Part shown: positions 1,632 through 51,088 of the stretch, in pieces
How the letters are laid out: the number at the start of each line of letters is the position of its first letter
Position numbering within the stretch: position 1 is the first letter of the stretch
Translations under genes and position numbers: made by a program
Notes under the pieces: model-generated
What the model was told of the DNA's origin: nothing
Database searches by the model: none
The model's input: the letters and a program-made list of their open reading frames with translations, nothing else
Source: a virus
Virus record (IMG/VR): IMGVR_UViG_3300050821_005035
Location: 1-64,000 of that record
DNA length: 64,000 bases
Strand: one strand, 5' to 3'

Positions 1632-4600
1632 ATGGCCGACCAGTCAACCGATTTATCGACAACGAATCAACCAGCGGGAACCACGAGCATTGACAACGGC
1701 ATCGCCTACGACGTTGCGGGCAAGCCGCTTGGACCTGCGAATATGGGAGCGCAGGAAGCTGCGCCGCCGCCTCCTCCTGGATTTAAGCCTGTGACAGTGA
1801 GCGGGCAAGACGCGCCTCCTCCACCTCCCGGATTCAAGCCCGTTGCTGAAAAAGCAGAGCAGTCCGCTGCACCAGCACCCAAGGCCGAGGAAGACAGTGC
1901 TGCGTACAAGTCTTTGAAGAACTTCGCGGGTGCGTTCAACCTCACGTTGACAGGCTCCGAAGACGCGGACTCGTTGAAGAAAAAGGTCTCGGACTATATT
2001 CAATCGCAGCCTCCCGGCTGGACAAAGAATTTCTCCCCTCAGTTCCAAGAGATGACAAAGGCCGCTAGCGGCGTCATCGGAATGGCGAAGGGTGCGTACG
2101 ACTCTCAGAAGCACGAGATGGATACCGGAATTGCGCAGATGCAGCAACCGGGAATCGCTAATAAGGCGTCCGGCGCGGCGCGTTATGCGCAAGGTCTTGT
2201 TCCGTTCATAGGCCCAGCAATGGGAGCCATCGAAGACAATTTCGCGAACGGAGATTACGCGAAGGGATTAGGCACCGCGTTCGCGCTGCTTGTTCCCGGA
2301 GCAGCGGAGCACTACGGCCCAGGCCTCATTGAGGACTTAAACAGCCGCGCGGCGAAGGTAGCTACCACCGACACGAAGAGACTGATTCAAGCAGCCAAGA
2401 CCCAGGACAGCGCCAAGGTACTGTACGACGGTCGCACCCGGGAGCACAACGTCGCGGTACAGCAGGTTAAGGACGCAGAGACGCGCGCCGACGCAGCTAG
2501 AGAGGCACAAGTCGCTGGCACAGGAACCAAGGCGCAAGCAGACGAGGCAGCAACCAACGCGTCAGCCGCGAGAGCGAACTTAGGGAAGGCAGAGTCTGCG
2601 GTAACGGACGCGAGGGACGCGCACGCGAACGCGTCGGTACGAGTCGAGCAATTAACGAGAAAGGCTCAAGCCAGCCTCGGAAAGGCAGCGGGCACCAAGA
2701 CCGCGTCACCGGAGCAGGTCGAGAAGTCTCACTCAGATTTCGAGCAAGCTATTCCGTCAGGGAAAGGAAAGTCCGCGTACACGAGAAACGATCTCGTGAC
2801 CGCGAGGCCGATTTTAGAAGCTGCGCACGCCGATACTCCAATAGACAGTCCGGAAGCGGTAGTAGGCGCGTTGGAAAGTGACCGGGTATCTAGAGACAAC
2901 CAGGTCTTGGGCGCGGTAGACAAGTATAAGAACGAGCCTATCAGAGTGGAAGGCGAAGACGGCAAGACAGTCAGCTTGAAGCAGAAGCTGGTCGACTCAT
3001 TGAAGGAAGACGAGGCCGTTCGTCCTGGCTTCACTGAAGCCGCGTTGAAAGAGTTGGAAAGGTTTAACACCACCGATATGTCGGTCGGGGAAGCTGACGC
3101 GCTTCGTAAGTCTTTGAATACGGAAAACCGCGACATGTTGAACACGAGCGGCGGCTGGAGAGACGTCGCAGACGCAAGGGAAACAGACCCGAAGTTTGCC
3201 GCCAGATACGAGCTACAAGAAATTCTTCGCAACGGAGTTTACGGCACGCTGGAAGATAAGGGCGTCGAAGGCGCGAGAGAATCCCGCAAGGTAGACGCGT
3301 CGGTCATAAGAATCAAGAACGCTGCGTTGAGGCAGCTTAATAAGCCTGGAACAATCATGAGAGGGACCGGAGAAGCCGGACCTGTCAGACGGGCTGCGGC
3401 GTGGGCTGCGGAAAAAGCTGGCATAGCTGGCGGCGTGGCCGCAGGCGCAGCTACCGGGATACCAGGCGCACCAGAAGTACTCGGCGTGGCTGGCGGCGGA
3501 ATAGGCGGGAAGATTTCAAGGGCGCTTAATCCAGGCGATCTAACACGCAGCGAACAACTAGGTCGTTCTTTGAAGGTAAGGCACGGCGGGGAAGTTCCGA
3601 CCATTGACGTGTCCGGCTCTCTGCCGAGCAACCCCCCTGCGTTCGGACAGCCTCCCGCTGTAGAGCCTCCGGTAAATCCGAGAGAGAACACAGAACTGCA
3701 CGCTCAGTTAGTCGCTCACTACGACGAGGACATGGGAGACAGCACGTACTCCGAGTTGGAGCAGCGTCTCTTGGAAGATATCGCGATCAAAAAGAAACAC
3801 GGCGTACCTGTTGACCCAGCCGAAAAGAAACTCAACCTGGATATTCAAAAGTCCAAGGTCGAAGAAATTCAAAAGGCGCGCGGTCAACACGAGGAGCAAC
3901 TCAAGGTTACGGCCAAGGCTGCGGCGGAAGCGCAGAAGCAGCAGGAAGCAGCTATCGAATCTAGGAAGACAGGCACGGTCAAGACGGATGTTAATCCGGA
4001 ACTCGACAGACTAGGACGCGGCGACGAGTCCGCCTTGGTATCTCACTCGCCCGCGATGAAGGCGCATAGTCCTGCGTCTGTAATCCCCGGCCTACCGGAA
4101 GGCGTTACCTCCGAGGACGGACATATCCACGAGTGGGCGCACATGGCAATCGGTTCGGTCGACGGACTAGAACCTGTCGAGATTCGTTCCGACATCCACC
4201 CGAAGAGCGAGAAGGGCGCTGGAGCTACCGCAGTGTTCAATGGCTCCGCGCTGCGCGACGCTGCGGGCAATATCGACCCGGAGGCCTTGGGAAATCAGGA
4301 AACGCAGTGGCTGACCCAGAAGATGGCAGGCCCGGCGTCCCACGAAGTCTTCAAGGGAATGACGCGCGACGAGGTAAAGGCCTCTCCCGCGACCCGTTCC
4401 GACTTCCGCACGTCACGCGCTATAGTGCGAGAGGTTCACCCGGATTTCACCGCATCCCAGGTCGAAGCGGTCGTTGACGCGGCCTACGAACGCGCCAGAG
4501 ATTTTCTAACTAAGCCACACATCGCAGACCGCATCCGTGCGAACGCTGCGGTGAGAGAAGACGGACTGTCACAAACGCTCCATGCTAGTCATGGACGTGT

Positions 4601-7600
4601 AAGCCAATTTGCGGAGGATATACGAAATGCCCACAATGAATACACCGGAACTGACGTTGAACCAGATGGCGGCGGGGCTGGGGAAGGCGTCGAGAAAGCT
4701 GAGAAGCCAGCAGCCGAAGAAGGGAAGAAGGACGCAGGAAGAAGTGAAGAGCGAGGCGGGAAAGGAACACCAAAGCCTGCTAGCGAAGCTGCAGCAGCCC
4801 GTGGGGTCGTTGAAAGCGAAGTAGGCAAGATTCCCGTCCCGAAGGAAACGACAACCGGGAAGCCGGAAGTCGACGAGGCCATCCGCGCGGGCGGGGGCAT
4901 CCCGGGCGGCATTCAGAAGGGCTTCGAGTACAAGGACAAGACTACGGGCGAGACTCGTCAGTACCCGGACACCGCGTACGTACACGAGCCGACCTCGGGC
5001 ACCTCGTTGAACTTTCCCATAGATCAGATCACATCGGAGTTCGTGAAGCAGCGACTGGATGAGAAGCGGGCCGAGTATGCTGCGGCAGAGAAGCCGAAAG
5101 TAGAAGAGAGCCAGGTCTCCAAGAAGGAAGAGGAGAACTATCATCCGGACCTTCAAGCGGTAGCCAATAAGTACGGCACGTCAACGGACCCGACAGGAGT
5201 TAAGCGCGGCGCTTCGTTCATCGCACCGGACGGAAAATTTATTCACCTGGGAGCCACGGAACACCCGGTCGCTATCGAATCTGCGACTAACCGAGTTGGC
5301 GATGCGGAAGCAGTCGGCGCGAAGATGACACGCTCGAACGGGCCGGAAGACAGTCGAATCGGATTCTTGAAAGACACCGGAGCTATACGTACCCGCTTCC
5401 GTTCATCGGTCGCCGGTAAAGAATTGGTCGCGTCCGTACCCGCAGCAGGCGTATCAGAAGAGCAGATATCTGCACTGAGACAAGCTGTAGGACAAGGATT
5501 GGGACGAGACGGAAATTTTCTAATGGAAGTTGGAGAGCCAGGCGGAAAGTCGGCCACGAAGGAATTCGCTTCACCTCGCGACGTCGAACCGATGCTGCGA
5601 GAGATCGGCGCTCACCCGGAACAGAAGGCCGCACCAGAGAGCCAAATAGATGTCCACGAGAAAACAGGCGGCTCCACATTTACACCGGAAGGCAAGAACC
5701 TCGCGGGTTCAGACTTGCATGCGGTCGCGCCGTACCCGGAGCGTTCTCAGGTAGTTGATAAGCTGACGCCGGAAAACTTGGCCGCATACAAAGCCAAGAA
5801 CGCGGACCTTTTGAGCGACGGTGAACACGCTGTCGGAACCTGGAAGGACCCGGAGAGCGGCAAGACGTATCTCGATATCTCTAAGACCATTGCCGACAGA
5901 CAGGACGCGATCCGAGCCGGACAGGACGCGAACCAGAAGGCTATTTACAATTTGAAAACAGGGGAGACGATTCCGACAGGCGGCACCGGAGAGGCAGAAA
6001 CACCTTTTGATGTAGCCAAAACTCGCCCAGAACGCGTCGCAGAAATTCAAAGCAGAATGGACCGAAATCTGCGCGCAGGAGATAACCAGTACAAAGGCTT
6101 GAGTCCAGAAGAGCGGAACATCATGGCTTGGGATGCCCAAAACGGGATGGACCAAGTTCGCGGTGCGATCTCTAAGGCGGGAGCCAGATTTGCAGGAGGC
6201 CCGCTGGCAGATGGCCGTTGGAACGTCCAAGACCCGGAGACCGGACAATACGCCACTGTAAGTGACTTGAAGCCGAAGAGTATCCAAGATGCGTTGAAAG
6301 CTGCAAGATCAGGCCAGCAGATGCAATTGCCAGATGGCTCATGGACAACGCAACCGGATAATATTTTGGAGATGAGCCAGATCGGAAAGTCTCCCAAGGG
6401 TTCCTCGGTTCCTTTGATGACGAACCCGCTGGAAGTCAAGGGCACCGGAGAGAAGGGCCGCATCTCTACTCTAGACGTTGCACAAGCGTTGAACGATTAC
6501 AGCAAGGAAAAGAACCCCGCGCTGGAACCAGGCAGCAACGCGAAGACGATGACAGACCGCGCTCAAAAGATTGCGGAGGACGAGGCCAAGTACCAGCTTG
6601 CACAAGGTAAGACGGGTACCGAGTGGTACACCACCGAGATGAAGGACCACGACGCAGCACTACAGGGTATGCGTCCAGAACTCGCGGGCGGTGAAACGCT
6701 CGACTCAGTTCCCGGGCACCCTGTGAAGCTGTCGCTGTTCAAGGCTGCGGAAGCGGTCTTGTCATCCGGCCAGAAGCCTTACGGAAACTTCAAGGCAGCT
6801 GTGAAGGCCTGGGACGCTTACAACGAAACAGGAAAGTTCCCACGACTGAATCCGGCAACAGGAAAATCTTGGGGACCTCGGGGCGAAGCTGCGTACGGCA
6901 ACGCTCTCGACATGATTAACAAACTGGTCGCCGACAAGGGCGAGAAGGGCGCGGCTGAGTGGCTGCTCACCGACCACCCGGTATCGGAGTTGAAGGAGTT
7001 GAACTCCACGACTAAGGGAAAGAAGACCGACATGCGTCCTGGAGCTATCATCCTGGGCGAGAAGCGGGGGCCTTTCATGCAGAACCTCCACGGCATCGAG
7101 TCCGCGTTCACCGCCGATATGTGGGTCTCCCGTACTTGGAACCGCTGGATGGGTACGATGGAATTCGGAAAGGACAAGGAAGGCGTCGACGAGATCAAGA
7201 GCGACTCCCCACGCAACGGTGCGGAACGCGACCTGATGAAGCAGTCCTTCGAAGGCACGGCTAAGAAGCTGGGTCTCACCACATCCAGCCTGCAGGCCGT
7301 CCTCTGGTACTACGAGCAGGCGTTGTACGGCGCGCAGGGCATCCCGAAGGAGTCTTGGTCGTTCCGGGACGCGGCACAAAGAGCCGCTAAGGAAGAGGCT
7401 GCGGTACCGGAAGCGGAACAGACGGGCTTCCAGTTCGGGGCGAACAAGGAAAAGGGCGGGATATCGAACATGGGCAGCTTGACCGCTAACCCGAAGTTCG
7501 ACGCTCTGGGAAGACCTTTCGGCGGCGGAAAGATGAATCTGGAAGAGTCTCATATCACTCAGGAACCAACGTACACCGTCCCAAAAGGGTGGAGTAAAAC

Positions 7601-46934: not shown

Positions 46935-47386
46935 TTAGTCTCCCGATTCCAGTTCACGCCGACGCTTAAGTCTAGCTGAGTAGAACAAGTCTAGCATATG
47001 CGTACCGACTTCGATAGCCTTATTTTCTTTCATCTGGTGCTGCTTCGCCAGGTGCCCGATCAGAGAGAGCGCGAATCCGGTGCGAAGAAACTGGTGACAG
47101 TCCTTGCACTCGATGACGCCGTACCCAGGCAGGTCGATATGCGCGGGCTGGGCCTTGGGTCCAAACATCCAACGGTGAACCATTGATAGCATTTTTCTAC
47201 GCGCCTCTCTTGATTGCTTCTCTGATATCGTTCGGCTCCGAGCAAATCGAGCACGGTACGACCTTGCGCTCCGGGTTCAGGTCGACTACCATCCAGAAGC
47301 CAGCGCACCGTTGACAGCCCAGCTTGCCGTTGAAGTAAATCACGTTCTTGGGTTTCATGTCTCGTTTCGGTCTGCGTTCTTCGCTC
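46935..47386 (-). other. Two small Zn-finger ORFs (46935-47192 C2H2-like; 47197-47386 CxxC-CxxC)
   Basis: CKDC...H...H; CQRC...CSIC. Confidence 0.6.
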
Positions 47387-47996
47387 ATTTCTGTAACCTG
47401 CCCTTTGCCCATGTTTTAGCTGCATGAAGATGACTTGCGTTCTCGCCGTTCTCTTTCAACTGCTTGTATCCCACATCTACCATTTCTACTGCCAACATTC
47501 TTAGCTGCTCAAAATCATCAACAGGCTCGCTCCTGTTCTTCCGTTTCTCTGTATGTGGCTGAGATTTTAGAAGACCAGATGAACTAATTTCGCCTCCCGC
47601 TTTGGTGACGTCTTCGACGTATTTTGCTGCTGTATCCTCTGGTACCCGTGACAGCTTTTGCCAATACTGGGCTGTCCTTTCAGACGTATCGGTCTCTTTA
47701 AGGGCTTTAGAATAAGCACTTTCTACAGGCGCAGCCGTTGCGGGAGTAGATTTTTTCTTGGTAGGCTCTCCGCCCTTTGACTTTTCTAGCTGACCAAGTA
47801 GTTCTCCTGCCCGCCGAGCGGCTAAGAGAGCTATCTCGGCTGCGTAATTCTGAGACTCTCGACCTAGATGAGCAGCCTTAGCATAAACTTTTGCCGCTTC
47901 TGCTACGTCCTTGATCTTGAGGACCTCAGACAAAGTTCTAGATTCTGATAAGGCTAGACGCGCTCTATCAAGTTTTGCTAGTGCGAATTCGCTCAT
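47385..47996 (-). CDS. Helical protein resembling N-terminal domains of phage DNA-methylase-associated proteins
   Basis: AEIALLAARRAGELL; SERTAQYWQKL; ATGA overlap with Mom gene. Confidence 0.5.
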   Translation of the reverse strand: MSEFALAKLDRARLALSESRTLSEVLKIKDVAEAAKVYAKAAHLGRESQNYAAEIALLAARRAGELLGQLEKSKGGEPTKKKSTPATAAPVESAYSKALKETDTSERTAQYWQKLSRVPEDTAAKYVEDVTKAGGEISSSGLLKSQPHTEKRKNRSEPVDDFEQLRMLAVEMVDVGYKQLKENGENASHLHAAKTWAKGRLQK

Positions 47997-48772
47997 GCTG
48001 CCTTCTTGGGGTAAGACCGAATGCCCCAATGTAGGATAGATTTGTCCTGGCTATCTGCAAACCAAACGTACCTGTGTTTTATGCTGCGAGAAACTCGAAA
48101 TACCCTATGCTCTTTTCCAGAGCTATCTGTTAAAACGTCCTTCGAAGCCCACTCGCGTTTGTTTGTTTTCTTAGAAGGCTCCCCGCACTTGGGACAGTTT
48201 CTAAGCAGCGGGATATTCCCGTCTTCTACATAAGGTGAAACAAATCCGCCGTGCTCCCCACACTTGTAAATAAATCCGCCTCGTAGATACTGAGGAACGC
48301 TTCTGTAGTCGACAAAACCCTCGACGGCGATATCTATGAACGGCGTAGATGACCCTGTATAAATCCAATTTGTAGCTTGATAAACATATCCGACATGTCC
48401 CTGCTTACCGTCTGCATAACTGACCAGAATTGCAGAGGGATTCTTCTTTCGGAGTTCCTTCAAACACCAGGCTATGAATCTGCTCTCGCTGTTTCTTGGC
48501 AGGCTGTCATCGAGCCATAGCCTGTTTAATTCATAAACATCGTGTGTCCTAGCCGCTGGATTCTTCATCTGGAGTTTATTTTCTCCAACCAGTCCGCACG
48601 AGGTAGACCATGACGCGGGCTTTCCTATCGTTAAAACACCCTTTGTTTCTTCGCCAATCTTTATACCCCACGCATACGAGATTGGGCATTTTCTGTGAAG
48701 ATAGTGTTTCTCTATCACTAACTCGACTGCTTCTCTCTTCTCTATTTGAACAAAATTAGGATTGGATGTCAA
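47993..48772 (-). CDS. Mom-family (GNAT-fold) DNA adenine modification enzyme with Zn-ribbon insertion
   Basis: KHYLH; ELNRLW; NSESRFI; LVSYAD..GHVGYVYQATNWIYTG; KHRY. Confidence 0.8.
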   Translation of the reverse strand: MTSNPNFVQIEKREAVELVIEKHYLHRKCPISYAWGIKIGEETKGVLTIGKPASWSTSCGLVGENKLQMKNPAARTHDVYELNRLWLDDSLPRNSESRFIAWCLKELRKKNPSAILVSYADGKQGHVGYVYQATNWIYTGSSTPFIDIAVEGFVDYRSVPQYLRGGFIYKCGEHGGFVSPYVEDGNIPLLRNCPKCGEPSKKTNKREWASKDVLTDSSGKEHRVFRVSRSIKHRYVWFADSQDKSILHWGIRSYPKKAA

Positions 48773-49338
48773 ATCCCCTCCCCTGATTCTAAGACGCGAA
48801 CGTGAGGTAGGACTTTCAGTGCAAATTCTTTCCTACCGATCTGGTAATAGCCAGAAAAAAGACGGATTGGATTGAAGTATATGCCTGTTTTCAAATCTAT
48901 GTCGGGGATGTTAGGGTCGGGGATAAGGAGGTCATACTTCGCGCCGTGGGTGCTTTCGGCTACAGTTTTCACGTAATCAGGCGCATTTTCCAGACCTGCG
49001 TCGGACAATTCTCTCTGTGTGGTTTCTACGCTATCTGGAGAAGCGCTGACAGTCAAAATCCAGTTAGAAGATGCTTGAGAAAGCAGTTCGTCCATACCGT
49101 CTTTTGAAAAGTCAACAGGGGCATCAAATGTACTCTCGTTACCCTCGTAGGGAGCATATTTACTAGCGAATATTGGCGTGGTCACAATCGAGCCAGCGAT
49201 TACCCTAATTTTTGACGGCCGGATAGACAGTTGATTTCTTTTAATCCAAAATGGGCCTTTTTCACTATAAATTTGCGCTAGAGATGATGTGAATTGAAGT
49301 ATATCGACCTTTTGCAAGCCGTAATATGCTGTTAACAC
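48769..49338 (-). CDS. Hypothetical protein between tRNA-like gene and Mom
   Basis: GAGG RBS, GTG start, TGA overlapping Mom start. Confidence 0.6.
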   Translation of the reverse strand: MLTAYYGLQKVDILQFTSSLAQIYSEKGPFWIKRNQLSIRPSKIRVIAGSIVTTPIFASKYAPYEGNESTFDAPVDFSKDGMDELLSQASSNWILTVSASPDSVETTQRELSDAGLENAPDYVKTVAESTHGAKYDLLIPDPNIPDIDLKTGIYFNPIRLFSGYYQIGRKEFALKVLPHVRVLESGEGI

Positions 49339-49357
49339 ATGAGCCTCTTTCTAAAAA

Positions 49358-49435
49358 TGGAGCGAAGGGGTCGGAGTTGAACCGCCGTCCGCAGGGGGTT
49401 TAAGCCTGCGTGCTCTACCCTTGAACTACCTCCGC
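49358..49435 (-). tRNA. Atypical tRNA: Gly-type acceptor arm, 9-nt anticodon loop, bulged T-stem
   Basis: GCGGAGG/CCTTCGC acceptor, T73, encoded CCA; D-arm GTTC/GAGC; anticodon stem CGCAGG/CCTGCG around CTTAAACCC; GGCGG-TTCAACT-CCGACC. Confidence 0.85.
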
Positions 49436-49442
49436 ATTTAAG

Positions 49443-49471
49443 ACAATATCACAATCGAGCCTATTTGTCAA
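49443..49471 (-). promoter_or_regulatory. Sigma70-type promoter of tRNA-Mom cassette
   Basis: TTGACA-17 bp-TATTGT with TGn; ends 7 nt before tRNA G1. Confidence 0.8.
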
Positions 49472-49480
49472 GAGTTATTT

Positions 49481-51088
49481 TTACGCTCTCCATTTTTCTG
49501 CGTAAATTGTGGCTAACGCTCTCTTGCCGTTCGGGTATGTGAAGATGTGCGTGTGAGACCAGTTGCTAGGGCCTTGGTTGTAATTCCACCGAAGATTGGT
49601 GCTCGTTCCAGCCACGTAGAGACCGCCGTAAATTCCGCAGCTGTGGGTGTGCGCCGTGTTGGCCTTGCGTGCCATCGTTGCCAAGTTCAATGGGCTGCCC
49701 CACCGTCCCGCAGGACCTAGATGGCCGTGTTGCCCGTTCTCGATCTTCTTCCCGCACGTCAGGTAAGACTCGTCGGAGAGTAGAAACTTTGTCCGAGCAT
49801 TATATCCTGCGTTCTTTAAGAACCATTCGAGCATGTTCACATCTCGGACCATCTTGCCCTTTCGCAATTCCGAGTACATGTACGCCTGCGCTTTCAAGAA
49901 CAATTCGGAGTTGGCCGGGTCTTTTCTGTAGTCGTATTTTTGCAGCCAGGACTTCAGCCACGGGTCGTCGTGATTCGAGTAAACGATCACGGTCTTGGCG
50001 AAGTCGTAGTTAAACCAGTTAAGAACTCCTACAGTCTTTTCCAGTTCTGCGTCGAGTCGGGTAAGACCACGCATCCAGGTCATAAAGCGCGCGTGAGGAT
50101 TGTCGGATTCGTGGTGGTTTACGGACGCACCCTCCATTACGTCGTGGAGGAAGATGTGCTTAGGTTTCAGTGTTGCGATGATATTTCGAGAAATAGACAT
50201 AACGTCTGGGTCTATTTGAGTTGCGTGAATGTCGCCCAGGGTGATTGATTCAATACGATTGCCTGTGGTGACCTTGCCGTTCTTCGAGACGACGTCGAGG
50301 TCTTGTATAGTGCCACTCTCGTCTTCGTTTAGTTGCCGGACCCACCAGTTGCCGTCGGAGTTAACCTCGACGAGAAGGCCGCCGTAGATGTGGTGAAACT
50401 CCGCGATCATGCCTTCTCGCTTCTGGATGTAGTTGCGTTGGGTGATGGTGCCCGTGGTGTAGTTCATCTTGACGCCTTCGCCCTGCATCGTAGCGATGGA
50501 GCGCATCGCTAGCTTGGCGTGGGGGAAGATTGCGCTGTTGCGACCTGTGTAAGATTCCAGGGACGCCAGCGGCTGCACTGCGGTCGGGAGGATGTTCATC
50601 TCTCCGCACCACACCAGGCCGGGGGCGAGTTGAATGCGGCGGTCTTGGATGTGATCGGTAATTTTTGGGTCGTACCAGAGTTCTTTCTCTTCCATCTTGT
50701 CGGTGCCGCGCTTAACGCTCAGCTTGCCGAATCGGTTCTGGTTGTACGTGTAAGTGCCGACGATGATCTCCGCGTTGTAATGCTTCGCGAGAGCGTTCAA
50801 GTTCCTCCACGCTGACTCGTGAACGTACGTGTTGTTCTGTGCTGACGTCAGGACGTATCGACGAACCTCGCCCTTCACCGGCAGCTTCTGCTTCTCTGCC
50901 TTGGTGCCGTCGATGGTGCCGGACGCGAGAGGCTTCTTCATCAGGCCGAGCGGTGTTATGATGCGGCGCACGGTGTGGCGGCTGATGCCTAACTCTTTCG
51001 ATGTGGCGCGGACGTTGCCGCCGTTTCTCTCGAAGGATGCTGCGACTACATCTTGGGGCGTGCGATCTCTTTTCTTAACTGCGCTCAT
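49481..51088 (-). CDS. HTH + metallophosphoesterase (T5 A1-like)
   Basis: NVRATSKELGISRHTV; TSAQN; GDIH; HD; SNHD; QHGH; AHTH. Confidence 0.75.
   Translation of the reverse strand: MSAVKKRDRTPQDVVAASFERNGGNVRATSKELGISRHTVRRIITPLGLMKKPLASGTIDGTKAEKQKLPVKGEVRRYVLTSAQNNTYVHESAWRNLNALAKHYNAEIIVGTYTYNQNRFGKLSVKRGTDKMEEKELWYDPKITDHIQDRRIQLAPGLVWCGEMNILPTAVQPLASLESYTGRNSAIFPHAKLAMRSIATMQGEGVKMNYTTGTITQRNYIQKREGMIAEFHHIYGGLLVEVNSDGNWWVRQLNEDESGTIQDLDVVSKNGKVTTGNRIESITLGDIHATQIDPDVMSISRNIIATLKPKHIFLHDVMEGASVNHHESDNPHARFMTWMRGLTRLDAELEKTVGVLNWFNYDFAKTVIVYSNHDDPWLKSWLQKYDYRKDPANSELFLKAQAYMYSELRKGKMVRDVNMLEWFLKNAGYNARTKFLLSDESYLTCGKKIENGQHGHLGPAGRWGSPLNLATMARKANTAHTHSCGIYGGLYVAGTSTNLRWNYNQGPSNWSHTHIFTYPNGKRALATIYAEKWRA

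Follow-up and report, generated by a model that had tools for sequence, protein, structure and literature searches.

The DNA analysed here, which we refer to as the window, is a 64,000-nt stretch (positions 1 to 64,000) of IMG/VR virus record IMGVR_UViG_3300050821_005035, a 75 kb contig from soil. Its minus strand carries, at 49358–49435, a 78-nt gene for a Gly-type tRNA-like RNA with an encoded CCA, which is recognized from its fold, from its match to a family model built without it and from an identical contig. The RNA gene is part of a mom cassette with the minus-strand order 535-aa protein gene, promoter, RNA gene, 189-aa ORF, Mom gene and 214-aa ORF, and the G+C content of this cassette is 46% compared to 54% for the window. 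The putative promoter is a sigma-70-like site (TTGACA-17-TATTGT with an extended −10 TG; 49443–49471, minus strand) that matches the consensus at 10 of 12 positions and stops 7 nt upstream of G1 of the RNA, and no strong terminator was seen after the RNA gene.

The Mom-family protein is a GNAT of 259 aa (47993–48772, minus strand; Pfam PF25680, E 3.4e-39), and its gene starts 586 nt downstream of the CCA on the same strand, with one conserved ORF in between. When the window's Mom was aligned to the structure of Mu Mom (PDB 8bv8), both the arginine of ELNR and the serine of NSES were found to be kept. We read these two residues as R111 and S124, because the S124A crystal chain has an alanine at the serine's place; the Mom paper gives R111 and S124 as essential residues of Mu Mom (PMC13219725). 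The intervening 189-aa ORF (48769–49338, minus strand) begins 20 nt past the CCA, and its stop overlaps the Mom start. It is a conserved Mom partner in a sub-clade: its family comprises 13 proteins, and Mom lies in the same cassette in the three loci for which DNA is at hand (L086–L088). Downstream of Mom, the 214-aa ORF (47385–48029, minus strand) is a recurrent Mom neighbour, since tblastn matched it beside Mom and an RNA of the family described below in four loci on unrelated contigs (L270, L177, L193 and L224).

A structural model of the 189-aa protein has a confident C-terminal domain (residues 57–189, pLDDT about 90 or higher), and, compared with its 12 homologues, its N-terminal part of 55 residues is divergent and shortened. 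When this model was searched against the PDB with Foldseek, the best match was no better than E 0.5; the alignment of the 189-aa protein gave no match among viral contigs, and locus searches with the 189-aa or the 535-aa protein as single queries gave no match. The 535-aa protein gene (49481–51088, minus strand), upstream of the RNA, is highly conserved, with more than 2,300 metagenome relatives at 60–85% identity; the protein has an N-terminal Fis-type HTH, matches phage genes annotated 'DNA transfer protein' and is a good marker for the window's soil phage group.

Anatomy and fold of the RNA gene

Read 5' to 3' (49435 to 49358, minus strand), the RNA is GCGGAGG-UA-GUUC-AAGGGUA-GAGC-A-CGCAGG-CUUAAACCC-CCUGCG-GAC-GGCGG-UUCAACU-CCG(A)CC-CCUUCGC-U-CCA. 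Its 7-bp acceptor stem is formed by GCGGAGG (49429–49435) and CCUUCGC (49362–49368) and includes the pairs G1-C72, C2-G71, G3-C70 and G4-U69. The D arm GUUC-AAGGGUA-GAGC (49412–49426), assigned from the fold and from family covariation, has a 4-bp stem and a GG in its loop. It is followed by the anticodon arm (49390–49410), in which a 6-bp stem (CGCAGG/CCUGCG) closes the 9-nt loop CUUAAACCC at 49396–49404, by a variable region of only 3 nt (GAC, 49387–49389), and by the T arm GGCGG-UUCAACU-CCG(A)CC (49369–49386), whose bulged A at 49371 lies between pairs 50-64 and 51-63. The discriminator U73 and the encoded CCA occupy 49358–49361. Both the D loop and the T loop are canonical, and the anticodon arm is the longest in the family set.

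The minimum-free-energy (MFE) fold of the RNA is a cloverleaf (−27.5 kcal/mol, 47% of the ensemble) and is identical to the architecture given by the original prediction, namely a 6-bp anticodon stem, a 9-nt loop, a 3-nt variable region and a bulged T-stem; its further statement that all stems pair and that the CCA is intact agrees with this cloverleaf and with the encoded CCA. The register with the 9-nt loop is better by 5 kcal/mol than one with a 7-nt loop (CUUAAAC) plus a CC bulge, and its pair probabilities are 0.76–0.78 vs about 0. Similarly, the T-stem with the bulged A is better by 3.4 kcal/mol than a drawing with a mismatch. The folding energy is not above chance when compared with shuffled sequence (z = −0.97), and evidence for a real gene must therefore come from elsewhere, that is, from homologues.

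ARAGORN labels the gene tRNA-Leu(taa), an artefact that comes from imposing a 7-nt loop and accepting two mismatches in the stem. Leucyl-tRNA synthetase identity and the class II form of tRNA-Leu go with a long variable arm and an A73 discriminator. Here the variable region is only 3 nt, the discriminator is U73 and the UAA register is the one that is 5 kcal/mol worse, and a tRNA-Leu identity was rejected, as had been anticipated from the missing long variable arm and the absence of A73. The Rfam tRNA model (RF00005) gives the RNA 24 bits, below its gathering score of 29, vs 47–59 bits for the phage's own Asn, Ala and Thr tRNAs, which cluster elsewhere, outside the window and on the other strand. 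One of these, annotated tRNA-Asn(GTT) (positions 65482–65567 of the phage genome; also L084:1501–1587), is 87 nt long, scores 47 bits and has a long class II-type variable arm and a C at the U33 position, a body not usually seen with an Asn anticodon. Of the Leu codons, UUA is used least (94 of 1134), and codon usage was dropped as evidence because it was uninformative.

The glycine identity marks G1-C72, C2-G71, U73 and purine 4/pyrimidine 69 are all present in the RNA. C35 and C36 do not stand in a normal anticodon loop; as the original prediction had it, they are out of canonical position, and a CC is found at the 3' edge of the 9-nt loop instead. The RNA also lacks the set of features expected of a canonical elongator, which are a 5-bp anticodon stem, a 7-nt loop with U33 and an uninterrupted 5-bp T-stem.

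These unusual features are not products of assembly. Logan contigs of two sequencing runs span the RNA gene with 0 differences and 0 gaps; the first run (X1) is a possible source of the record, and the second (X2) comes from a different sample and study, likewise of soil. The X2 contig is 913 nt long, has a depth of 5.6 and covers 49338–49900, and its identity over the gene disposes of the concern that the C run or the bulged A is an assembly error. A third run (X3) did not cover the RNA gene, no RNA sequencing runs holding the locus were listed, and exact-pattern scans for the anticodon arm or its loop gave no match in viral or metagenome contigs.

A family of tRNA-like elements beside Mom genes

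Every homologue of the RNA in related loci was missed by ARAGORN and by Rfam, and relatives were found by short-word blastn in the Mom cassettes of L102, L087, L088 and L086. Mom follows the RNA directly in L102, L087 and L088 and at a distance of 1.7 kb in L086; in L087 and L088 the RNA is placed between the 189-aa-family gene and Mom. The closest relative is that of L102, a locus with the order 535-aa gene, promoter, RNA and Mom, where the promoter, identified by consensus match only (TTGACA-18-TACGAT), is at the same distance from the RNA as in the window. The anticodon loop in L102, alone among these relatives, is also 9 nt long (CGCUAACCC), and a 3' AACCC is common to both loops. Between the window and L102, three anticodon-stem pairs and the acceptor pair 7-66 are changed on both sides, and UAA is out of register in L102. 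The retention of the 9-nt loop together with compensatory stem changes indicates that the odd loop is maintained and is not the result of decay. The covariation check on homologues that had been suggested thus returned compensatory stem changes, and the earlier argument against simple decay holds. Furthermore, the bulged A is retained in L113 (GAAGG/CCU-A-UC) with two compensatory pair changes around it, and also in L031 and L086; these three were found independently of the T-arm pattern used below.

A separate observation concerns L089 and L095, the closest IMG/VR relatives of the window's phage. In both, the slot downstream of the 535-aa gene holds a 282-aa ORF, a Gly-type tRNA-like RNA (L089:6032–6101 and L095:6109–6175) whose apex is CCA or CCCC and whose T-stem shows no clear bulge, and then a DruA-family protein (PF14236, E 1.7e-10 and 6e-15) that replaces Mom. 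DruA-like enzymes of phages may therefore have Gly-type carrier RNAs as well.

The family was collected with a protein-blind pattern for the bulged T-arm and the 3' end (GGCGG-N7-CCGACC-NN-TYCGCTCCA), which matched 81 stretches in IMG/VR and 28 in genomes (one per prokaryotic species; 185,579 species). Removal of chance matches that had no acceptor stem left 96 elements, of which 80 are viral and 16 genomic; these give 71 unique sequences when the window's RNA gene and two relatives are counted. We found that 89 of the 96 elements are directly adjacent to a Mom domain on the same strand, 41 of them immediately before Mom and 48 immediately after it; in one case Mom is on the opposite strand, and for six elements, several of which are at contig ends, Mom was not found. 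Among the genomes, about 16 true copies of the T-arm pattern are present, 15 of which are beside Mom. In a control set of 80 loci of the same phage group, chosen for the 535-aa gene, only two contain Mom, and both carry an element. The reverse association is weak: of the 80 IMG/VR Mom loci nearest to the window's Mom, only one has a family member, and this lies 2.1 kb from Mom on the other strand. The association between the RNA and Mom is thus one-sided.

A covariance model was built from 67 elements, leaving out the window's RNA gene and its close kin. This model (R2) matched the window's RNA gene with 64 bits (E 4e-14) as the sole match in 64 kb, and it did not match the phage's three canonical tRNAs. 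The window's RNA gene therefore shares with the family the model match, the same-strand Mom neighbour, the bulged A and the apex CC. ARAGORN detects 27 of the 96 elements (72% missed), of which 11 are called Gly with a normal anticodon and the remainder are given as '???' with 2- or 4-nt anticodons.

A blastn search with three family members against cultured phages returned no convincing member; a match in Erythrobacter phage XM05 was rejected as an ordinary, unannotated tRNA array, and at least eight unannotated tRNA-like matches are present at the start of that GenBank record (L278, positions 1–2722). Three contigs (L249, L212 and L217) have two Mom domains each, and L249 carries two Gly-type RNAs (4013–4085 and 4638–4709) in tandem cassettes. 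The possibility that the RNA is an attP or integration-site remnant was dropped, as it has a full cloverleaf unlike host tRNAs and its copies are scarce and Mom-linked.

The features that are conserved in the family are distinct from those that are free. G1, C2 and G3 are the same in all members, covariation is seen at acceptor pairs 4, 6 and 7, and all four D-stem pairs change on both sides, with 87.5% of cells paired. In 70 of the 71 unique members the anticodon arm has a CC at its apex, a feature not imposed by the search pattern, with U or A on its 5' side and in most cases A on its 3' side. At the position that corresponds to U33, only 37 of 70 have U. The length of the anticodon arm ranges from 9 to 21 nt, with the canonical 17 nt in only 20 of 71, the MFE folds give loops of 3 to 11 nt, and many members no longer have canonical D and T loops. 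Because the search pattern itself specified the T-stem, positions 68–76 and the CCA, their invariance in the scan sample is not evidence. Taken together, and judged from the sequences, the family keeps the determinants of glycyl-tRNA synthetase (GlyRS) but not a codon-reading geometry.

A candidate glycine carrier for Mom and its alternatives

In phage Mu, Mom uses Gly-tRNAGly as the donor of the glycine that it attaches to N6 of adenine in double-stranded DNA; each of the three E. coli tRNAGly isoacceptors is accepted, while Gly-tRNAAla is not (PMC13219725). Given the linkage to Mom in 89 of 96 elements and the conserved Gly marks, we consider it probable that the RNA gene is a private, translation-excluded glycyl carrier for the neighbouring Mom. 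A Mom donor had been a mere alternative in the original prediction and is now the best-supported reading. Transcription of the RNA would start at its own promoter and probably run on through the 189-aa ORF and mom, and the RNA could be charged by the host GlyRS through G1-C72, C2-G71, R4-Y69, U73, the CCA and the apex CC. The non-canonical 9-nt loop and the bulged A in the T-stem segment read by EF-Tu would bar it from translation, and its glycine would be passed to the neighbouring Mom and then to N6 of adenine in the double-stranded DNA of the phage.

Several published results bear on these proposed steps. The bacterial GlyRS determinants are G1-C72, C2-G71, U73, C35, C36 and purine 4/pyrimidine 69, of which C35 and C36 are major, and the α2β2 enzyme requires the L shape (PMC10464925). 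With the CC at the 3' edge of a 9-nt loop and this need for an L shape, charging may be poor. The specificity of EF-Tu depends on pairs 49-65, 50-64 and 51-63 (PMC3239215), and with a bulged A between two of these pairs the RNA is predicted to be a poor ligand of EF-Tu and the ribosome. Gly-tRNA that is unbound by EF-Tu may be open to deacylation by D-aminoacyl-tRNA deacylase (PMC5409826). Against a carrier stands the use of ordinary host tRNAGly by Mu Mom, which means that a private carrier is not required; in addition, the 189-aa ORF separates the RNA from mom here, and the reverse association of Mom loci with the RNA is weak.

An alternative is that the RNA acts in cis within the mom cassette, its tRNA shape setting mRNA ends (by RNase P, RNase Z or 3' protection) or controlling mom expression, with no amino acid involved. 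The position of 89 of the 96 elements, abutting mom on the same strand either before or after it, would suit such a role, as would the promoter common to the RNA and the cassette in the window with no strong terminator after the RNA, and the loss of canonical D and T loops in many members. However, a processing signal would not need glycine-specific acceptor marks or the apex CC that 70 of 71 members have, the paired enzyme has Gly-tRNAGly as its known co-substrate, and the family is also found away from mom (L031). We regard a purely cis-acting RNA as unlikely.

The RNA could also be a decoy or sponge for a host factor that targets tRNAGly or Gly-tRNAGly, such as an anticodon nuclease or a GNAT toxin, or a substitute resistant to it. 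Phage tRNAs that counter tRNA-targeting defences exist, and a nuclease could be trapped by the unusual loop or fail to act on it. Also in favour of this idea, the Mom paper mentions GNAT toxins that act specifically on Gly-tRNAGly (PMC13219725). However, a decoy leaves the adjacency to Mom in 89 of 96 elements unexplained, and the anticodon loop, the very part to be mimicked, is the least conserved; a resistant substitute would need to decode, against which the loop and the T-stem both argue. The suggestion of a decoy for anticodon nucleases made in the original prediction found no support here, since loop size is free in the family and its members adjoin Mom genes, and this explanation is very improbable.

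A third alternative is a decoding tRNA, which would insert glycine through its expanded loop by quadruplet reading or frameshifting, or miscode at UUA. Expanded loops can read longer codons, as in sufD-type suppressors, and the cloverleaf, the canonical D and T loops, the intact CCA, the Leu(taa) call by ARAGORN and the 9-nt loop kept in L102 are in line with decoding. However, the Leu register costs 5 kcal/mol and has a pair probability of essentially zero, the long variable arm and A73 are missing, and UAA is out of register in L102. The 3- to 11-nt loops of the family, the frequent loss of U33, the bulge within the EF-Tu specificity pairs and the Rfam score below threshold (vs 47–59 bits for the Asn, Ala and Thr tRNAs) all speak against it as well. 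The frameshifting or miscoding tRNA that had been proposed was likewise not supported, given arms of 9–21 nt, U33 lost in about half of the members and the position of the bulge, and we judge a decoding role to be highly improbable. Finally, a functionless decaying pseudogene or assembly artefact, which could be argued from the score below the Rfam threshold, from a folding energy no better than that of shuffles and from the absence of an exact copy of the loop in the viral and metagenome contigs scanned, has a negligible chance of being correct and is already largely refuted by the identical contig from an independent run, by the compensatory changes in homologues, by the 64 bits of the leave-out model and by the conservation of the odd features themselves (the bulged A and the apex CC), which also speaks against the idea that the homologues are normal tRNAs and this copy a pseudogene.

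Relation to known systems

The kinds of system to which the proposed carrier would belong, dedicated non-ribosomal aminoacyl-tRNA donors and the use of Gly-tRNA by Mom, are already known. The nearest parallel is Mom of phage Mu (Silva et al., Nat Commun 2026, PMC13219725; PDB 8bv8): the same enzyme family is encoded 586 nt downstream of the RNA, and its co-substrate is glycine on a tRNA with a Gly acceptor end, an end that the window's RNA has. Unlike the window's phage, Mu encodes no tRNA and its Mom harvests that of the host, whereas the cassette described here has its own deformed, putative carrier. A phage-encoded or tRNA-like partner of Mom is not mentioned in the Mom paper (PMC13219725).

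By description, the proposed carrier also resembles the non-proteinogenic tRNAGly of S. aureus (NP1, NP2 and NEW), which are glycine donors for Fem peptidyltransferases, are charged by the normal GlyRS and bind EF-Tu weakly with altered elbow nucleotides (PMC4574755, PMC12256121). Like them, the window's RNA would be a dedicated glycine carrier that escapes translation. The S. aureus RNAs differ in that they are cellular, present a UCC anticodon in a 7-nt loop and supply glycine for cell-wall synthesis instead of DNA modification; moreover, their T-stem is regular with weak-binding pairs, whereas that of the window's RNA has a bulge. In Dehalococcoides ssrA islands, a 76-bp tRNA-Gly-like 'pseudo-tRNA' is embedded in a mom homologue (McMurdie et al. 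2011, PMC3146451). As described, this is likewise a Gly-type tRNA-like locus physically tied to mom, but it lies inside the first 150 bp of mom and on an integrative island. The 2011 paper, which predates the discovery of Gly-tRNA use by Mom, proposed no function, and it is the only printed mention of an association between such an RNA and mom found in the literature searched (PMC3146451).

The window's RNA resembles the sufD tRNAGly in its tRNAGly body, its C run and the enlargement of its anticodon loop, but it has a 9-nt loop whose size is not conserved in the family, and its T-stem is bulged. The sufD-type +1 suppressor tRNAGly has an enlarged 8-nt anticodon loop with a C run and a normal T-stem and acts on the ribosome. 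A frameshift suppressor is expected to have an enlarged loop of fixed size, retained for decoding, and the anticodon arms of the homologues vary from 9 to 21 nt. With ordinary phage tRNAs the window's RNA has in common that it is a phage gene with a cloverleaf and a putative promoter of its own; it is unlike the phage's own tRNAs in its Rfam score (24 bits vs 47–59) and in its location in the mom cassette.

To these systems the window adds an extreme form with a 9-nt loop that is shared by two phages and conserved between them, a gene for a 189-aa partner and a wrong tRNA-Leu annotation. For annotation, the lesson is that ARAGORN misses 72% of the family's genes and mislabels the window's as tRNA-Leu. 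The use of charged tRNA by Mom was published only in 2026 and was described as scavenging of host tRNA. For phages in general, we lean towards the view that many carry a private, translation-excluded carrier rebuilt from tRNAGly that solely feeds an adjacent Mom, and in sister phages a DruA-type enzyme, in the hypermodification of DNA; the form with a 9-nt loop would then imply that GlyRS needs only the acceptor marks and an exposed CC and no canonical anticodon loop. If this is true, nature would have provided in this family a series of minimal GlyRS substrates whose loops range from 3 to 11 nt, the carrier would account for how Mom obtains Gly-tRNA in competition with EF-Tu, and it would be the first known case of a tRNA-like RNA dedicated to DNA modification.
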